Source of the DNA: a virus
Lineage: Duplodnaviria; Heunggongvirae; Uroviricota; Caudoviricetes
Length of the DNA: 8,103 nt
IMG/VR virus record: IMGVR_UViG_2695420792_000011
Coordinates: 1-8,103 of that record
Direction: 5' to 3' (one strand)
This document shows, piece after piece, positions 1-6,150 of the stretch. The notes beneath the pieces were generated by a model. That model was not told where the DNA came from. It did no database searches and was given only the letters and a program-made list of their open reading frames with translations. The position numbers and the translations under genes are program-made. Every line of letters begins with the position of its first letter. Position 1 is the stretch's first letter.

Positions 1-351
1 CCGTTCGCCGGTTGCCCCGACAGGGCCGGTGTCACCGCGCTCTCCCTTATCACCCTTCGGCCCCTGAGGACCCGCGGGCCCCTGCTCCCCCTTTGGCCCG
101 GGAGGTCCCACCACGGTGGGGATTCGGTTTACGGCGTCTTCCGCCGCTATCCTGCTTTGTTCCGCTGACTGTGCGCTTTCTGCTGACTCCCGGGCTTTTT
201 CTGCTGCGGTCGTTGCATCCCTGGCTGCATTACCGGCTGCACTTTCTGCCGTCTTTTTTGACAACTCGGCATCTGCTGCACTTTGTAATGACTCACTGGC
301 TTTTTGAGCGGCCGCAGAGGCCGAGGACGAGGACGCCTCCTCTGAGGGCAT
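1..351 (-). CDS. Partial CDS (5' part, continues past window start): phage side tail-fibre-like protein with Ala/Ser/Glu-rich region and collagen-like Gly-X-Y repeats; possibly an N-terminally truncated remnant
   Basis: Manual minus-strand translation from ATG at 351-349 (in-frame TAA immediately upstream at 354-352) gives MPSEEASSSSASAAAQKASESLQSAADAELSKKTAESAAGNAARDATTAAEKARESAESAQSAEQSRIAAEDAVNRIPTVVGPPGPKGEQGPAGPQGPKGDKGERGDTGPVGATGER with no stop before position 1. It is absent from the ORF track because it has no stop in the window. The 12 consecutive G-X-Y triplets and the A/S/E-rich stretch match the composition of enterobacterial Stf-type tail fibres. No convincing SD precedes the ATG. 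Confidence 0.6.
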   Translation of the reverse strand, partial: MPSEEASSSSASAAAQKASESLQSAADAELSKKTAESAAGNAARDATTAAEKARESAESAQSAEQSRIAAEDAVNRIPTVVGPPGPKGEQGPAGPQGPKGDKGERGDTGPVGATGER

Positions 352-713
352 TTATGGAGCCGCGACAAAGTGTGGTGCCGTAACTGGCTAAGTGCTCTCA
401 GCGTTGTGGTAATCCGCGAAATGGCGCGGCGGTAAGTATGGCGGGGTTACTCTTTCCCCGTTGAGGACACCGGATTGTCAGGTTGACCATACGCCTGAGT
501 GACAACCCCACCACAACAGCCACTGCTTTGGCGGTACCAGTTTGTACACTTGCTTCCGGCTGGTACCGCTCTTTTTACAAAACAGAGAAGAGCATCACCG
601 GACGACGGGCTCATAACCCAATCCACCCGGGCGGCTGCCACCGCAGGTGTTCTTCTCTGTTTTGTGGAGAAACCAACCGACCTTGCAGGGTCGATATGAT
701 GAGGAGCAGCAAA

Positions 714-1076
714 ATGGCTAGCGAACGCAGTACTGATGTGCAGGCATTTATCGGGGAGCTGGACGGCGGCGTATTTGAAACCAAAATCGGCGCAGTTCTC
801 AGTGAAGTCGCTTCCGGTGTGATGAACACGAAAACCAAAGGTAAGGTCTCGCTCAACCTGGAAATCGAACCGTTTGATGAGAACCGTGTGAAAATCAAAC
901 ACAAACTCTCATATGTTCGCCCGACTAACCGCGGGAAAATTTCCGAAGAAGACACCACCGAAACGCCGATGTATGTCAATCGCGGTGGTCGCCTGACTAT
1001 TCTGCAGGAAGACCAGGGACAATTACTGACTCTTGCCGGTGAACCTGACGGAAAACTCCGCGCAGCAGGTCATTAA
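714..1076 (+). CDS. yfdP: YfdP-like prophage protein (120 aa), unknown function
   Basis: ATG at 714 preceded by GAGGAG (700-705); product MASERSTDVQAFIGELDGGVFETKIGAV...GKLRAAGH. The track ORF 483..1076 is the same frame with an implausible N-terminal extension. Length and sequence match my recollection of CPS-53 YfdP. Confidence 0.7.
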   Translation: MASERSTDVQAFIGELDGGVFETKIGAVLSEVASGVMNTKTKGKVSLNLEIEPFDENRVKIKHKLSYVRPTNRGKISEEDTTETPMYVNRGGRLTILQEDQGQLLTLAGEPDGKLRAAGH

Positions 1077-1141
1077 TATCGTTCTTAATTAACTGATTAT
1101 TTATCTCATCACTGAATATCTTTATATAGTGAGGACTTATT

Positions 1142-1966
1142 ATGTCTCAGAACTTAGACGCAACCGCAATTAATCAAATCCATGCCCTTATTTCTGCTCA
1201 GGGTGTTAATGAAATTATCAGTAAGATTGGTGCCGATGCTGTGGCATTGCCTGAGAATTTCCGCATTCATGATCTGGAAAAATTTAATTTAAATCGCTTC
1301 CGTTTCCGTGGTGCGCTTTCCACTGCCAGCATCGATGACTTTACCCGTTATTCTAAAGATCTTGCAGATGAAGGCACCCGCTGCTTTATCGATGCCGATA
1401 ATATGCGAGCCGTCAGTGTGCTTAACCTGGGTACTATTGATGAACCAGGTCACGCAGATAACACCGCCACCCTCAAACTGAAAAAGACAGCACCGTTTTC
1501 TGCTCTGTTGTCTGTTAATGGCGAGCGTAACTCCCAGAAGTCACTGGCAGAATGGATTGAAGACTGGGCCGACTACCTTGTGGGCTTTGATGCTAATGGT
1601 GACACCATTCAGGCAACCAAAGCAGCCGCGGCAGTCCGTAAAATCACAATTGAAGCAAACCAGACCGCTGATTTTGAAGACAATGACTTCAGCGGCAAAC
1701 GCTCCCTGATGGAGTCTGTCGAAGCGAAGACCAAAGACATTATGCCAGTGGCATTTGAATTTAAATGCGTTCCGTTTGAAGGCCTGAAAGAACGTCCGTT
1801 TAAATTACGCCTCAGCATTATCACTGGCGATCGTCCTGTACTGGTTCTGCGCATTATTCAGCTGGAAGCGATGCAGGAAGAAATGGCTAACGAATTTCGT
1901 GATCTGCTTGTTGAGAAATTCAAAGACAGCAAAGTAGAAACCTTTATTGGTACTTTCACCGCCTGA
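1142..1966 (+). CDS. yfdQ: YfdQ-like DUF2303 family prophage protein (274 aa)
   Basis: ATG 1142 with GAGGA 6 nt upstream; long ORF with good codon usage; N-terminus [30 protein letters not shown] recognised as YfdQ (recollection). Confidence 0.85.
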
Positions 1967-1978
1967 TTTCATTACTGC

Positions 1979-2000
1979 AAATGCCCCTGCGGGGGCATTT
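1979..2000 (+). terminator. Hairpin aaatgcccc-tgcg-ggggcattt (9-bp stem, 4-nt loop) after yfdQ; possible intrinsic terminator or attenuator
   Basis: Perfect inverted repeat 1979-1987/1992-2000 lying 13 nt after the yfdQ stop. The trailing T-tract is only the ttt inside the stem, so termination efficiency is uncertain. Confidence 0.4.
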
Positions 2001-2094
2001 ATGGAAACGTAATTAACTCAATAATCACCGGATGGTGAGAGCTTCCTTTTAGCAGAATTCAGCGCGGTGCAGCGCATATAAAGTGGAGACCGAA

Positions 2095-2631
2095 ATGTCA
2101 TTTATTAAAACTTTTTCCGGGAAGCATTTTTATTATGACAAGATAAATAAAGACGACATCGTGATTAACGATATCGCAGTTTCCCTTTCAAATATCTGTC
2201 GCTTTGCAGGACATCTTTCACACTTCTACAGCGTCGCCCAGCATGCGGTGCTTTGCAGCCAGCTGGTACCGCAGGAATTTGCTTTTGAAGCGTTAATGCA
2301 TGATGCAACAGAAGCATATTGCCAGGACATCCCCGCTCCACTGAAACGCCTTCTTCCTGACTATAAACGGATGGAAGAAAAAATAGATGCCGTAATCCGT
2401 GAGAAATACGGGTTACCCCCGGTTATGAGCACGCCTGTGAAATATGCCGATCTCATCATGCTGGCAACCGAACGCCGCGATCTCGGGCTTGATGATGGCT
2501 CTTTCTGGCCTGTACTGGAAGGCATCCCGGCAACAGAGATGTTCAACGTGATTCCACTGGCACCGGGCCATGCCTACGGGATGTTTATGGAACGTTTTAA
2601 CGAGTTATCGGAGTTACGCAAATGCGCATGA
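2095..2631 (+). CDS. yfdR: YfdR-like HD-domain phosphohydrolase (5'-deoxynucleotidase family), 178 aa
   Basis: ATG 2095 (MSFIKTFSGKHFYYD...) with GGAG 7 nt upstream; the track start at 2083 is a GTG with no SD. HD motif visible in FEALMHDATEAY. Stop TGA 2629-2631 overlaps the next gene. Confidence 0.85.
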   Translation: MSFIKTFSGKHFYYDKINKDDIVINDIAVSLSNICRFAGHLSHFYSVAQHAVLCSQLVPQEFAFEALMHDATEAYCQDIPAPLKRLLPDYKRMEEKIDAVIREKYGLPPVMSTPVKYADLIMLATERRDLGLDDGSFWPVLEGIPATEMFNVIPLAPGHAYGMFMERFNELSELRKCA

Positions 2632-2984
2632 ATGTTTTCGAAATGGAAGGGTTTCTTCGCGGGAAATGTGTACCGCGAGATCTGAAAGTGAACGAAACAA
2701 ATGCTGAGTACCTGGTACGTAAATTCGATGCGCTTGAAGCTAAATGTGCGGCACTGGAAAACAAAATAATACCAGTGTCAGCTGAACTGCCACCAGCAAA
2801 TGAAAGTGTTCTGTTATTTGATGCTAACGGAGAAGGCTGGCTAATTGGCTGGCGTTCTCTCTGGTACACCTGGGGACAAAAAGAAACCGGAGAATGGCAG
2901 TGGACATTTCAGGTCGGGGACCTTGAAAACGTCAATATCACTCACTGGGCAGTAATGCCGAAAGCACCGGAGAATAAGAAATGA
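2622..2984 (+). CDS. yfdS: YfdS-like DUF551 protein (120 aa)
   Basis: ATG 2622; overlaps the yfdR stop; C-terminal motif ...ITHWAVMPKAPE is typical of DUF551 (W...THWMPLP-like). Confidence 0.8.
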   Translation: MRMNVFEMEGFLRGKCVPRDLKVNETNAEYLVRKFDALEAKCAALENKIIPVSAELPPANESVLLFDANGEGWLIGWRSLWYTWGQKETGEWQWTFQVGDLENVNITHWAVMPKAPENKK

Positions 2985-3184
2985 GCGTGATAAAAACTCA
3001 TACAGGAATTGTTATCACCCGAGACGGTCCGCAGGTAAAAAAACTGCACCAGACAAAGCGGATGTGGGTCGTCGGAAAAAACGAGTTTTACCACAAAGAA
3101 AACGGACGCCGCCACTTTGCAGAAAATACTCGCCGCCGACTGCTGATCGATACCATCAAGCCTATCGAGGTGAAGCATGTTTAA
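2981..3184 (+). CDS. Small hypothetical phage protein (67 aa), basic
   Basis: ATG 2981 overlaps the yfdS stop (ATGA); its stop TAA 3182-3184 overlaps the next ATG at 3177 (ATGTTTAAA). Coding-like composition. Confidence 0.6.
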   Translation: MSVIKTHTGIVITRDGPQVKKLHQTKRMWVVGKNEFYHKENGRRHFAENTRRRLLIDTIKPIEVKHV

Positions 3185-3415
3185 ACAGAACGAAAAATCT
3201 ATCGCTCAAATTGCTGAGTATATCCCGCGTGCGTGCCGGGGTATGCAGTTGCAGGAAGCCAAAGCACGCCTGGAGAAAAAATTGCGCTCTATATCGATGA
3301 CGGCTGTGATGCTGCCGTTCTTAACGCGGCGTTCGCGCCAGCTCTTAACAGTCATACGCGAGAGTCTTTTTTTTCGTGCATCGCTGCGCAGATCCGTAAA
3401 GGAGGCAACCAGTGA
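3177..3415 (+). pseudogene. Small phage gene whose reading frame appears to switch from frame 0 (start 3177) to frame 2 (stop 3413-3415); candidate frameshift at the A6 run 3276-3281
   Basis: The ATG at 3177 is translationally coupled to the upstream stop. The frame-2 stop TGA 3413-3415 overlaps the GTG start of the next gene (GTGA). Frame 2 has the better codon usage after about 3284 (IALYIDDGCDAAVLNAAFAPALNSHTRESFFSCIAAQIRKGGNQ), while frame 0 there uses rare ATA/AGA/CGG/TTA codons. Both frames are open across 3233-3415. Confidence 0.4.
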
Positions 3416-3810
3416 GCAAGATTGACTATCAGGCACTGCGTGAGGCGGCGGAACGTGCAATTCAAGCAATGGAACGCCTGTTAATGTTGCCAGCTGCTGA
3501 TGATTTGTTAAGTGAACAGGAACTTAAAGATTACGGTGTGGATATTGATGTGCTCAACGCCTTCAAATTTCTGACCGGACCAGAAACCGTGCTGGCGCTG
3601 CTGGATGAACTAGAAGCTAAAAACAAACGCATTACAGAACTGGAAGCGAGGGAAGTTCAATTACCGACTCGCTACGACCTTCGATATGGGCACCCAATAA
3701 ATGCTGATAAGCGACATGTCATGATACCTAAAGAAAATGGCAGTTGGCTTTGCCTGATTGACTTAGAACACGCACTACGCGTCGCTGGCATTCGCATCAA
3801 AGGAGAGTGA
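3412..3810 (+). CDS. Ead/Ea22-like phage early protein (132 aa), GTG start
   Basis: GTG 3412 preceded by AGGAGG (about 3400-3405); product MSKIDYQALREAAERAIQAMERL...ETVLALLDELEAKNKRITELEAR has the coiled-coil central segment typical of Ead/Ea22-like proteins. Family call is from recollection. Confidence 0.6.
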   Translation: MSKIDYQALREAAERAIQAMERLLMLPAADDLLSEQELKDYGVDIDVLNAFKFLTGPETVLALLDELEAKNKRITELEAREVQLPTRYDLRYGHPINADKRHVMIPKENGSWLCLIDLEHALRVAGIRIKGE

Positions 3811-3811
3811 T

Positions 3812-4012
3812 ATGGCAACTTTGACAAAAAAGGAACAGGCATGGTTGAGCGAATTACAGAACGTTCTTGATCGCTGCCCGTCACCGAAAAAAATTGGTTT
3901 TTACACCATTGGCGATAAAAGCATTTACCTGTATGACCTACGCCGCATGGATGAAATCATGGAGGCTCTTGATGATCGTTCGTCAATGGGATTGGTGTGT
4001 TGCTGTCCATGA
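3812..4012 (+). CDS. Small hypothetical phage protein (66 aa)
   Basis: ATG 3812 lies 1 nt after the upstream stop with GGAG just upstream; coding-like composition; the C-terminus ...GLVCCCP is unusual. Confidence 0.5.
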   Translation: MATLTKKEQAWLSELQNVLDRCPSPKKIGFYTIGDKSIYLYDLRRMDEIMEALDDRSSMGLVCCCP

Positions 4013-4076
4013 TATGAATGCCGGATTTGAAGAAAAGATTTTGTTCCCCTCGTCAGTTGAAAGCACTGCGGGTTAA
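3972..4076 (+). CDS. Candidate small overlapping ORF (34 aa) MIVRQWDWCVAVHDMNAGFEEKILFPSSVESTAG
   Basis: ATG 3972 with GGAGG at 3961-3965 (6-nt spacing); frame 0 is open to TAA 4074-4076 just before the SD of the next gene. Could instead be the tail of a frameshifted 3812 gene. Confidence 0.25.
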   Translation: MIVRQWDWCVAVHDMNAGFEEKILFPSSVESTAG

Positions 4077-4086
4077 GGAGTAACAC

Positions 4087-4665
4087 ATGACCACTATTAC
4101 CAAAGAACGTATTGAATTGTTCATTAAAAATCCGCTTGGAAACGGACTTACCCGTGGCGAACAAATGGAACTGGCACGAATTGCACTGGCATCACTGGCA
4201 GCAGTATCGGATGAACGAGCAGCCTATGAATTATTTATGGAGAAGCGTTTCGGGGAATCTGTAGATCGCCGCAGGGCGAAAAATGGCGATAGAGAATACA
4301 TGGCATGGGATATGGCGCTTGGCTGGATTATCTGGTGTCACCGCGCCGCCATGCTTCAGGCTGGAAACTTTCGGGAAAATAAGGATTCGTCAACCAATAA
4401 TTTTCGGGAAACCTCGGAAACGTCAACCAACTCTCCGGTAACTCCGGATAGTTGGATAAGCTGTAGTGAGCGAATGCCTGAGAAGAATCAGAACGTGCTC
4501 ATTTCGGTGAATTTCGATAGCTCTCTGGTTGAACCGCTAATATGCTCCGCACGCTATACCGGAAGCACTTTTCGGCGCGGAGATGCAACGATTAAGTCGG
4601 GTAATGGTATTGAGCAAGCAACTCACTGGATGCCGCTACCGGAACCGCCGCAGGAGGTGAAGTGA
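4087..4665 (+). CDS. DUF551-domain phage protein (192 aa) with N-terminal extension
   Basis: ATG 4087 with AGGAG at 4073-4077; C-terminal WISCSERMPEKNQNVLI...ATHWMPLPEPP is a DUF551-like signature. Paralogous to the YfdS C-terminus. Confidence 0.8.
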   Translation: MTTITKERIELFIKNPLGNGLTRGEQMELARIALASLAAVSDERAAYELFMEKRFGESVDRRRAKNGDREYMAWDMALGWIIWCHRAAMLQAGNFRENKDSSTNNFRETSETSTNSPVTPDSWISCSERMPEKNQNVLISVNFDSSLVEPLICSARYTGSTFRRGDATIKSGNGIEQATHWMPLPEPPQEVK

Positions 4666-5237
4666 TGAACAACTTAATGATCGACCTTGAGACGATGGGG
4701 AAAAATAAGGATGCGCCGATCGTTTCTATTGGCGCGGTGTTCTTCACTCCAGAAACCGGAGACATCGGACAAGAATTTTATGCGGTTGTCAGCCTGGACA
4801 GTGCTATGAAGCAAGGAGCTACACCTGACGGCGATACCATCCTGTGGTGGTTGAAACAAAGCCCTGAAGCGCGAGCTGCAATCTGTATTGATGATACTTT
4901 GTCGATCAGCGATGCTCTCTCAGAACTAAACCATTTCATTAACCGGCACGCAGACAATACGAAATATTTAAAAGTCTGGGGTAACGGGGCCACCTTCGAC
5001 AACGTAATTTTACGTGGAGCTTATGAGCGAGCAGGACAAATCTGCCCGTGGGCGTACTGGAATGACCACGATGTACGCACGATCGTTACGCTTGGGCGTT
5101 CCATCGGATTCGACCCCAAAATGGACATGCCTTTCGATGGCGAACGGCACAACGCCCTGGCTGATGCCCGTCATCAGGCAAAATATGTTTCCGCTATCTG
5201 GCAGAAATTAATTCCTGCCACCAGCACAGAATTATGA
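4665..5237 (+). CDS. DnaQ-like DEDDh 3'-5' exonuclease (phage exonuclease, Rv2179c-like fold), 190 aa
   Basis: ATG 4665 overlaps the upstream TGA, with AGGAGG at 4653-4658. Motifs visible: MIDLETMG (Exo I D-x-E), GNGATFDNVIL (Exo II D), GERHNALADA (Exo III H-x4-D). Confidence 0.85.
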   Translation: MNNLMIDLETMGKNKDAPIVSIGAVFFTPETGDIGQEFYAVVSLDSAMKQGATPDGDTILWWLKQSPEARAAICIDDTLSISDALSELNHFINRHADNTKYLKVWGNGATFDNVILRGAYERAGQICPWAYWNDHDVRTIVTLGRSIGFDPKMDMPFDGERHNALADARHQAKYVSAIWQKLIPATSTEL

Positions 5238-5273
5238 TTTTCCCGGGTGCAGCCGGTTTTGATGGAGAAAATT

Positions 5274-5546
5274 ATGAACACCTTGTTTTTACTGATGGCT
5301 GAATTCAATACCCCAAACATTGAACTCTCAGCAGTTAGCCAAAAGTACTTTGGCATGAGTCCAGCCACGGCAGAAGCAAAAGCAAACGCTTGTAAGTTGC
5401 CCGTTCCAACATATCGCATCGGCACATCACAAAAAGCAAAACGTTGCATCAATATTCAGGATCTTGCGGAATACATAGACAAAAGGCGAGAAGAAGGGCG
5501 TGCTGAGTGGGAAAAAGTCAGAACGGAAAAACAAAAATATAACTAA
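5274..5546 (+). CDS. PrtN-family / excisionase-like small DNA-binding protein (90 aa)
   Basis: ATG 5274 with GGAGA 5 nt upstream (the track start 5247 lacks an SD). Product MNTLFLLMAEFNTPNIELSAVSQKYFG...LPVPTYRIGTSQKAKRCINIQDLAEYID resembles the PrtN/Xis-like family motif (LP.P.FR.G.SQK...DLA..ID), from recollection. Confidence 0.7.
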   Translation: MNTLFLLMAEFNTPNIELSAVSQKYFGMSPATAEAKANACKLPVPTYRIGTSQKAKRCINIQDLAEYIDKRREEGRAEWEKVRTEKQKYN

Positions 5547-5561
5547 ACTAAAACTATGGAT

Positions 5562-5588
5562 AACCCGTATATGTACGGGTTATTTTTC
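5562..5588. terminator. Hairpin aacccgta-tatg-tacgggtt followed by atttttc; intrinsic terminator between convergent genes
   Basis: 8-bp perfect stem 5562-5569/5574-5581, 4-nt loop, T-run 5583-5587 on the plus strand. The minus-strand stop codon (5580-5582) lies inside the right arm. Confidence 0.6.
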
Positions 5589-6128
5589 TTTATCACTATC
5601 TTTTCTTGATTTGAACAATCCACTAACAACGAAACCAACCAAACCAACAATACTAATTGTACTTGTACCTAGTAATGCAACGATCGCTTCAACTGGAGGC
5701 TTTCCTTCATGTGCAATAAGAAACGATGTAAACATTGCGACAACGAATAAGCACCAACACGACATAAACCAAACCGTGAATGAGGCCATTTTTGTCCGAA
5801 GCTCATTGTCTATTTCTTTACCAGTTGCGTCAGCTATCTTATCCCGTACTTGTGATTTGAGCATATCAAGCTGAGCTTGAAGACTGTCCATTCTGTTCTG
5901 CTGCATAAACTCATGCAATGCACCAGTATTAGAACCAAACTCTTCTGCCTCCAGAATAGCTTTATTTTCTGAAGAAGAATCATCGTCGCTCTCATGATTA
6001 GACGGCTCAAATGCAGATTTAAAAACCTGTTCTTGACTGTCAGTAGAGTTTAAGGATGCTTCAGAGCGACCATTTTCAACACCTGCGGCCGCTCCGATAA
6101 GTTTATAGATATCTGAATTGTGAGACAT
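5580..6128 (-). CDS. 182-aa membrane protein: acidic disordered N-terminus, predicted coiled-coil, two C-terminal TM helices; candidate toxin/effector (PanT-like) partner of the upstream DUF4065 protein
   Basis: ATG 6128-6126 lies 22 nt downstream of the stop of the 6151-6624 gene. Hydrophobic segments MASFTVWFMSCWCLFVVAMFTSFLIA and IVALLGTSTISIVGLVGFVVSGLF (about 5613-5786) are followed by a basic tail KSRKDSDKEK. AT-rich codon usage. Confidence 0.7.
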   Translation of the reverse strand: MSHNSDIYKLIGAAAGVENGRSEASLNSTDSQEQVFKSAFEPSNHESDDDSSSENKAILEAEEFGSNTGALHEFMQQNRMDSLQAQLDMLKSQVRDKIADATGKEIDNELRTKMASFTVWFMSCWCLFVVAMFTSFLIAHEGKPPVEAIVALLGTSTISIVGLVGFVVSGLFKSRKDSDKEK

Positions 6129-6150
6129 GTCATCCCTGAATATTACTTTT

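Follow-up and report, generated by a model that had tools for sequence, protein, structure and literature searches.

Does the 182-residue, two-helix membrane protein encoded at one end of a lambdoid prophage act as a holin, as the toxin of a toxin-antitoxin pair, or as a membrane protein of another kind? The gene lies at 5580..6128 on the minus strand of the window, that is, the whole 8,103-nucleotide stretch analysed here (positions 1 to 8,103 of IMG/VR virus record IMGVR_UViG_2695420792_000011, Caudoviricetes), where it is listed as an open reading frame (ORF) of 182 codons plus a stop codon. An original prediction, made from the sequence, had proposed a holin or another membrane effector. 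The results below indicate, at a probability of about 0.9, that the protein is PanT, the toxin of the type II toxin-antitoxin pair PanA-PanT (PanAT_Esc.col.), carried on a prophage.

Identification of the 182-residue protein as PanT

The gene directly upstream carries the identification. panA (6151..6624, minus strand) adjoins panT on the same strand across a gap of 22 nt and encodes WP_000287252.1, a standalone Panacea-domain antitoxin of 157 residues; AGGAGG stands 6 nt before its ATG at 6624, and with the in-frame ATG at 6639 as start it would have 162 residues. The protein matches Pfam family SocA_Panacea (PF13274/DUF4065) with an E value of 6.2e-18 (66 bits vs. a cutoff of 25.7) and NCBIfam SocA_antitoxin with an E value of 1e-27 (score 96.8, under the equivalog cutoff of 190). 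A complete Escherichia coli chromosome (NZ_AP022261) is 100% identical to the window over 5400-6800 and annotates there WP_000287252.1 and WP_021563277.1, the latter being the PanT allele of the window.

WP_000287252.1 is the validated PanA of Shiga toxin-producing E. coli (STEC) O31, and its partner toxin, WP_000019185.1, is assigned the mode 'Membrane' (PMC8832971 Table 1). The dataset of the same study gives the STEC O31 pair as antitoxin followed by toxin, with a 22-nt gap and with the toxin in cluster T3 (PMC8832971). STEC O31 PanT blocks replication, transcription and translation indiscriminately, depolarises cells as reported by DiSC3(5) and lets SYTOX Green enter, which the authors read as formation of large pores; PanA neutralises PanT, relieving growth inhibition on co-expression, independently of ClpXP and Lon (PMC8832971). 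Toxicity, neutralisation, depolarisation and permeabilisation have been shown by others with this same PanA and a near-identical PanT allele, and these published phenotypes bear out the part of the original prediction that made the protein a membrane effector or pore former.

The window PanT shares 97.3% identity with WP_000019186.1 and 99.5% with WP_000019187.1, two alleles that pair with the same PanA; all E. coli PanT alleles examined are 93-99.5% identical to the window protein. In PhiR47_1, an inducible phage from ECOR13 (PV340566, a 2025 GenBank record), a 99.5%-identical copy is labelled 'PanT toxin' beside 'PanA antitoxin'. We conclude that the object is already known: it has the same PanA, a near-identical toxin allele, a tested phenotype and a PanT annotation in a phage record.

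Several points weigh against this identification. The identity to the tested toxin WP_000019185.1 is indirect, drawn from a common PanA, an equal gap of 22 nt, a matching architecture, accession numbers close to one another and alleles that are 93-99.5% identical, not from the sequence of that toxin. WP_000019185.1 was not met in the PMC8832971 supplements or in ten complete-genome records (seven allele classes), which yielded WP_000019186.1, WP_000019187.1 and five other accessions; its absence from these records is probably due to STEC O31 being a draft assembly. Substitutions in the first transmembrane (TM) helix occur among alleles, and an allele-specific loss of toxicity is formally possible. 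Published pull-downs cover five other PanA:PanT pairs, the E. coli pair not being among them, and for that pair we infer direct binding. The structural model of PanT, described below, is only moderately confident. Finally, no PADLOC model matched (PanA gave a spurious 11-bit match only), and the literature searched holds no phage-defence phenotype for the pair.

The anatomy of PanT is that of a membrane hairpin behind a long cytoplasmic segment. Hydropathy in 19-residue windows (Kyte-Doolittle) rises above 1.6 in two blocks, TM1 (about residues 114-139; 5712..5789, minus strand; peak 2.15) and TM2 (about residues 149-172; 5613..5684, minus strand; peak 2.22; ALLGTSTISIVGLVGFVVSGLF), which flank the presumably periplasmic loop HEGKPPVEA (residues 140-148; 5685..5711, minus strand). 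Along TM2 runs a stripe of Gly, Ser and Thr, which are small and polar residues. An AlphaFold2 model built on a 31-sequence alignment is of moderate quality overall (mean predicted local distance difference test score, pLDDT, 59.6; predicted template-modelling score 0.28), and its best part is the hairpin, with pLDDT of about 78-85. The modelled helices span residues 4-21, a near-continuous stretch 53-139 that runs into TM1 (53-66 and 68-139) and residues 146-179, with a loop at 140-145; pLDDT falls below 50 at residues 19-53. Positions 5613-5786, to which the original prediction was attached, encode residues 115-172, that is, the hydrophobic hairpin, and both hydropathy and model agree with the two TM helices split by HEGKPPVEA that it described.

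Its other descriptive claims fared unevenly. Residues 1-79 contain 15 D+E vs. 5 K+R (net -10), together with 26 S/T/N/Q, and the N-terminus is acidic as described. In the tail, KSRKDSDKEK, five basic residues stand against three acidic ones: it is basic, but of mixed charge and not purely Lys-rich. The helix MDSLQ...RTK, which starts at M80, has a moderate hydrophobic moment, and to call it amphipathic is plausible, yet this is no distinctive feature, and the model merges it into the helix at 53-139. Counts of K and R (three before TM1, one in the loop, five in the tail) suggest, by the positive-inside rule, an N-in/C-in topology.

PanT is not a chance ORF, given its match to PHROG 13343 over the full length (E value 2e-113), its homologous clusters and its near-invariant TM2. 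All of its PHROG matches are of 'unknown function'. Pfam returned sub-threshold membrane domains of unknown function (DUFs) only, both for PanT (DUF2207_C, 16 bits) and for ten distant relatives (including DUF2975), and neither NCBIfam nor PADLOC matched PanT. The structure prediction and fold comparison that had been proposed as a check yielded the hairpin and no fold match: a Foldseek search of the model against the PDB found nothing (best E value 5.7), which is unsurprising for a hairpin of helices behind an N-terminus modelled at low confidence.

Conservation of PanT, linkage to PanA and competing explanations

To place PanT within a family we used phmmer, which finds 67 homologous clusters across Enterobacterales, and a PanT profile, which finds 320 representative clusters at E<=1e-3 among 1.8 billion representatives. 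In an alignment of 31 PanT sequences whose overall identity goes as low as 31%, TM2 (ALLGTSTISIVGLVGFVVSGLFK) hardly varies; also conserved are an invariant E60, a juxtamembrane motif G103-x-x-I-D-N-x-L-R and, in TM1, residues A115, T118, F121, M122, W125, C126, F128 and V129. Residues 1-52 are hypervariable and rich in indels in the same alignment, and the most distant relatives, of 110-150 residues, match only profile positions ~60-175 and have no counterpart of the segment 1-52. From the nearly invariant TM2, the conserved motif and parts of TM1, and the hypervariable first 52 residues, the alignment defines the conserved unit as the pre-TM helix plus hairpin, about 110 residues in all. PanT accordingly divides into an acidic, low-complexity, hypervariable N-terminal segment (residues 1-52; 5973..6128, minus strand; defined by composition, alignment and pLDDT), a conserved cytoplasmic helix that leads into TM1 and is a putative PanA docking region (residues 53-113; 5790..5972, minus strand), and the hairpin. 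The acidic N-terminus is an appendage specific to the lineage and probably disordered, with no conserved sensor domain.

This finding runs against the suggestion of a sensor-coupled N-terminal domain, since residues 1-52 are hypervariable, have pLDDT below 50 from residue 19 on and are absent in distant relatives. A second argument comes from Bartonella, in which the equivalent region is the PanA docking surface: in a predicted, mutagenesis-supported interface, Panacea contacts the unstructured N-terminus and short pre-TM helix of PanT (PMC10440598). By analogy with that interface, the N-terminal half of the E. coli PanT is likely to be the surface on which PanA docks.

Within E. coli, the two genes vary differently. 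In five of six allele-class loci (L002-L007) PanA is invariant, with up to 11 synonymous and no non-synonymous changes, and in PanT non-synonymous and synonymous changes are about equally frequent (12/12 in L006). Up to 12 of 182 PanT residues are affected; the changes are confined to the N-terminal part and TM1, with TM2 spared throughout, and among them W120C and C124W form a reciprocal swap one helical turn apart. The allele pattern points to covariation in helix packing or to diversifying selection acting on PanT.

The linkage of PanT to PanA is strict. A Panacea gene lies directly upstream of the PanT homologue in 24 of 24 loci, and also on one metagenomic contig (DNA not returned); homologues examined down to 34% identity all directly follow such a gene. 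These loci amount to about ten independent contexts, not hundreds, and a scan of genome contigs with narrow peptide patterns gave three loci only. PanA and PanT diverge in parallel, with identities that drop together (75/67, 59/48, 44/34 and 42/40%). The pairs occupy variable prophage positions. The Enterobacter locus (L008; PanT 67%) is in a prophage remnant near a Phage_holin_3_1 gene; in a Providencia lambdoid prophage (PanT 48%) panAT lies between the Q antiterminator gene and separate Phage_holin_2_1 and lysozyme genes, and also adjoins methylase and specificity genes of restriction-modification type; in E. coli P2-like prophages (PanT 40%) it lies between gpA/DinI and the portal gene. 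Homologues in Erwinia, Pectobacterium and Buttiauxella are likewise downstream of a Panacea gene, and two short relatives of 141 and 123 residues, from metagenomes that are not enterobacterial, are also paired with PanA. The distribution is that expected of a mobile accessory module, of toxin-antitoxin or defence type, and not of a holin, because a holin would travel with its endolysin, and PanT travels with a Panacea gene.

The window itself covers one end of a lambdoid prophage that has dusA as its integration site, and panAT is the last operon before the attachment-site (att) junction, a typical position for a moron. This setting bears directly on whether PanT could be a prophage holin or auxiliary holin that times lysis for an endolysin, a reading with a very slim chance of being right. 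Two TM helices, the putative N-in/C-in topology and the charged C-terminal tail are as in class II holins, and to that extent the label 'class II-like' was apt; the published phenotype is large-pore formation, and control by LexA boxes (see below) would express PanT at prophage induction. Yet PanT matches no holin family in Pfam (E<=0.01) or PHROGs, and its 182 residues, 113 of them in the cytoplasmic part ahead of TM1, far exceed the roughly 65-95 of class II holins; in size, family and context the likeness fails. The prophage also has its lysis genes elsewhere, and among the homologous loci, too, any full phage or lysis module that can be seen brings a holin and endolysin of its own. In PhiR47_1, panAT is at one end and integrase at the opposite end, and the phage's own S holin, R lysozyme and Rz genes are at 15796-17383, about 14 kb from panT; in the 100%-identical chromosomal copy, essD, rrrD and the lysis-protein gene are about 19 kb from panT. 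The search for a nearby endolysin finds lysozyme genes 14-19 kb away and none adjoining panT, the neighbours of which are panA and a xis-like gene and not a lysis cassette; panT has its own sigma-70 promoter, outside the late operon, and the Providencia panT is upstream of a separate holin and lysozyme. In the loci examined PanT is always paired with a Panacea antitoxin and never with an endolysin. The holin proposal does not survive these results.

Nor is PanT likely to be a non-toxic structural or regulatory membrane protein to which PanA is adjacent by accident, a possibility that we put at a few chances in a hundred, slightly ahead of the holin. It draws on the failure of PanT to fall in any curated family and on the weak, sub-threshold matches to DUF2207_C and, for relatives, DUF2975; it is countered by linkage and co-divergence, which persist in relatives only 34% identical and in metagenomes of non-enterobacterial origin, and by toxicity and neutralisation published for the same PanA and a near-identical allele. 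A Hok-type (type I) toxin under an antisense RNA is effectively refuted. PanT depolarises the membrane, and its published phenotype resembles that of HokB, but it has 182 residues and two TM helices and is directly preceded by a validated protein antitoxin gene. Hok-type toxins have roughly 50 residues and one TM helix. Scanning the window for Rfam families and tRNAs gave no match, and with no family such as Sok present an RNA antitoxin is not indicated.

A different kind of alternative concerns biological role and is compatible with a toxin-antitoxin mechanism: panAT would be primarily an abortive-infection or superinfection-exclusion module, in which an incoming phage inactivates, depletes or triggers PanA and PanT kills the cell. 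Such a role is plausible in that it fits the prophage positions of the gene, although as the primary function we hold it tentatively, with the odds leaning against it. Homologous pairs are in the gpA-gpQ interval of P2-like prophages, an established anti-phage hotspot whose study catalogues 'DUF4065 + hypothetical' cassettes in its tables (PMC9122126); the Providencia copy is between Q and the lysis genes, beside methylase and specificity genes; and the position of panAT before the att junction is, as noted, that of a moron. There is also a precedent in the membrane-depolarising RmrT of phage Kita, which defends against phages, and in the hypothesis that Panacea is a sensor (PMC10440598). Against these stand the absence of a PADLOC match for the pair, the absence of a defence assay for it in the literature searched, and the predicted control by LexA boxes, which points to DNA damage and not infection as the transcriptional cue.

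Taking PanT as the toxin of a PanA-PanT pair, we propose the following mechanism. panA and panT would be co-transcribed from their own consensus sigma-70 promoter, and PanT would enter the inner membrane as an N-in/C-in helical hairpin. PanT that is not neutralised would oligomerise, probably through the invariant Gly/Ser/Thr face of TM2, into pores that collapse the membrane potential and admit SYTOX Green, so that replication, transcription and translation stop. PanA would neutralise PanT by direct binding, most likely at the cytoplasmic N-terminal segment and pre-TM helix. The pair would likely serve the prophage as an accessory module, whether in rivalry with other phages, in abortive infection or as an addiction system, and LexA would probably repress it until the SOS response sets in. 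Gene identity, architecture, strict linkage, co-divergence, separation from the lysis cassette and the anatomy of promoter and LexA boxes are established here.

Further occurrences of the module are as follows. panT is present in 79 of 5426 complete E. coli genomes, in single copy and always on the chromosome. Two further sequenced phages carry panAT, with PanT identity of 94.5-96.2%: OQ243220 (phiSTEC1575-Stx2k), an Stx2k-converting phage in which panAT is at the same genome-end position as in PhiR47_1, and KF030445 (1720a-02), another STEC phage. Its presence in an Stx2k-converting phage links the module to SOS-inducible Shiga-toxin phages. The original pipeline labelled the STEC O31 PanAT locus 'NotPhage' (PMC8832971 supplementary dataset); contrary to that label, the context of the window and the inducible PhiR47_1 indicate a prophage-borne locus.

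Promoter and LexA-box-like sites upstream of panA

The panAT promoter (6782..6809, minus strand) consists of TTGACA, a 16-nt spacer and TATAAT, matches the sigma-70 consensus at 12 of 12 positions and lies about 150 nt upstream of panA. A 12/12 promoter is also present in STEC313 (L004), and 11/12 promoters are found 114-180 nt upstream of panA in L008, L011 and L020. Between promoter and panA are three LexA-box-like sites. Site 1 (6746..6765; 18.0/17.5 bits) has the core CTGT-N8-ACAG and starts 16 nt downstream of the -10 element; site 2 (6723..6742; CTG-N10-CAG; 18.8/18.0 bits) is 23 bp from site 1, centre to centre; and site 3 (6642..6661; CTG-N10-CAG; 16.1 bits) is just upstream of the panA Shine-Dalgarno sequence. 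The LexA-box consensus is taCTGtatatatataCAGta (PMC7556043).

Scores come from a weight matrix compiled from known E. coli SOS boxes, the training sites of which score 12.9-27.3 bits. The three leader sites are the only positions of at least 8 bits in the 8.1-kb window, and the 95th percentile of the maximum in shuffled windows is 14.2 bits. Counts independent of the matrix agree: CTGT-N8-ACAG occurs once in the window, as site 1 (0.09 expected), and CTG-N10-CAG occurs six times (1.43 expected), three of them within 120 nt of leader. Specificity was checked with a matrix trained anew after removal of both boxes of the lexA gene: over 41 kb of actual chromosomal sequence, its only hits of at least 13 bits were the three panAT sites and the host's two lexA operators, at 18.2 and 18.8 bits. 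Scored likewise, PhiR47_1 shows tandem boxes immediately upstream of its dinI-like gene.

The sites recur in related loci. The site 1 core is at the equivalent position in the 100%-identical chromosome (L001), in the six E. coli allele-class loci and in PhiR47_1. In Enterobacter, the leader has a 22-bit box that aligns with site 1, and no ORF intervenes before panA. In P2-like prophages, Erwinia and Pectobacterium a 24-26-bit box heads a conserved gene of ~61 codons just upstream, and panAT follows with its own promoter; in Buttiauxella a 21-bit LexA-like box is 228 nt upstream of panA. The matrix scan found no LexA-like box at the Providencia and metagenomic panAT loci. The boxes in P2-like prophages, Erwinia and Pectobacterium suggest a recurrent association of panAT with SOS-controlled prophage regions.

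On this pattern of motifs, we lean slightly towards placing the panAT operon of this prophage lineage in the LexA/SOS regulon, repressed through up to three operators in the leader. PanT and PanA would in that event be induced together with the prophage after DNA damage, an outcome to which we give a little better than an even chance. LexA, SOS and native regulation go unmentioned in both PanAT papers (PMC8832971, PMC10440598), and the literature searched contains no paper linking LexA to a Panacea operon; SOS control of PanAT appears unreported, and the LexA-box cluster before panAT is possibly the one new point of this analysis.

We also considered whether the leader repeats are arm-type integrase sites of attP and rejected this as the main reading, because the aligned Enterobacter box is flanked by other small ORFs upstream and by host-type genes on the panT side, and because the repeats have LexA geometry and scores equal to those of real lexA boxes.

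Other features of the leader and its surroundings were observed in passing. A palindrome of non-LexA geometry, AACAGT-GATGAT-ACTGTT (~6653-6670, minus strand), overlaps site 3, and Enterobacter conserves it in its leader (ATAACAGTGATTATACTGTTT); it could fold as a hairpin in the RNA or serve some other factor as operator. The -10 element, behind its 16-bp spacer, is followed by a GC-rich discriminator (6773-6787, minus strand; TATAATTCGCCACC) that resembles the rrnB P1 discriminator TATAATGCGCCACC, and the Erwinia and Pectobacterium promoters (L019, L020) read TATAAT(T/G)CGCGCGC; transcription of panAT could on this basis be sensitive to guanosine tetraphosphate (ppGpp) and DksA. An alignment of promoters from six contexts was uninformative because spacing differs between contexts, and we claim no conserved discriminator element. 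The ~61-aa ORF upstream of panAT (MQDYFLESLKLQRIDFF...SELTDEL...) is at 2863-3051 in the P2-like loci L011-L013, at 1864-2049 in L019 and at about 2100-2295 in L020; dinI intervenes in the P2-like case, and the position of the ORF resembles that of an SOS-controlled antirepressor gene. The strongest LexA-like site in PhiR47_1 (6512-6531; 25.2 bits; TACTGTTTTTACATACAGTA) is inside a cI-like repressor gene (6048-6740, minus strand), and the start of that gene may be mis-annotated or the site may belong to an internal SOS-controlled promoter.

Beyond panA lies a displaced 5' fragment of dusA (6929..7033, minus strand; 105 nt), which marks the junction between prophage and chromosome, followed by a host DUF2713 gene; RefSeq has a pseudogene at the equivalent position, labelled 'tRNA-dihydrouridine synthase, missing C-terminus'. 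The fragment points toward panAT with no predicted terminator between them, and on these two grounds the host dusA promoter may read into the panAT operon. At the other end, a hairpin at 5558..5585, with a 12-pair stem and T-run on the plus strand and a 10-pair stem on the minus strand, overlaps the panT stop codon and has the look of a terminator working in both directions, for panT and for the xis-like gene (PrtN family) that converges on it.

Comparison with known systems

The identification has practical consequences. The pair should be annotated PanA/PanT, not 'hypothetical protein' or 'holin', and the division of PanT into a conserved core of ~110 residues and a fast-evolving, disposable N-terminus offers a guide for truncation and interface work. 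The PanAT papers used heterologous promoters for both genes and call the activating cues unknown. The LexA-box cluster supplies a hypothesis on when PanAT is expressed: SOS control, if true, would be a concrete natural input for a PanAT system and would connect the SOS response with a membrane toxin of type II, as TisB, DinQ and HokE do for type I.

The closest known system is PanAT_Esc.col. of STEC O31, which shares with the window pair the antitoxin WP_000287252.1, the gene order, the 22-nt gap, the species and the described architecture of a charged N-terminus followed by two C-terminal TM helices (cluster T3) (PMC8832971). The tested toxin there is WP_000019185.1 and that of the window WP_021563277.1, and alleles seen here differ at no more than 12 of 182 residues. 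The PanT_D11:PanA pair of Bartonella choladocola (apis) likewise has a standalone Panacea antitoxin and a toxin with a charged or unstructured N-terminus and a C-terminal TM region that depolarises and permeabilises (PMC8832971, PMC10440598). It is a separate sequence cluster, compared here by description and not by sequence, although clusters T3 and T12 may be homologous according to the authors of the PanAT papers; the mutation-supported PanA:PanT interface is that of the Bartonella pair only.

More distant likenesses extend to holins and to SocAB. Class II holins and pinholins such as phage 21 S68 resemble PanT in two TM helices, a probable N-in/C-in topology, a charged tail and permeabilisation of the inner membrane. 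PanT differs from them in having no family match, a long cytoplasmic N-terminus and no endolysin or spanin partner; it is held by a protein antitoxin, whereas class II holins are held by an antiholin or dual start, and the prophage has its own holin. In SocAB (Caulobacter, type VI) the antitoxin SocA shares the SocA/Panacea domain (PF13274) with PanA; SocA is a ClpXP adaptor that promotes the breakdown of SocB, an inhibitor of the replication clamp, whereas PanA is reported to need neither ClpXP nor Lon (PMC8832971) and PanT targets the membrane.

For the predicted regulation, the parallels lie among SOS-induced systems. TisB/IstR-1, DinQ/AgrB and HokE are SOS-induced E. coli membrane toxins of type I, with 29-50 residues and RNA antitoxins, and colicin operons have a strong promoter with tandem LexA boxes just downstream of the -10 element. 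The panAT leader resembles that of colicin operons, in that a strong promoter is followed by tandem LexA-like boxes just 3' of the -10 element. As with TisB, DinQ and HokE, a gene for a depolarising toxin stands behind LexA boxes, which in panAT are predicted; unlike them, panAT would produce a toxin of 182 residues together with a protein antitoxin from the same promoter.

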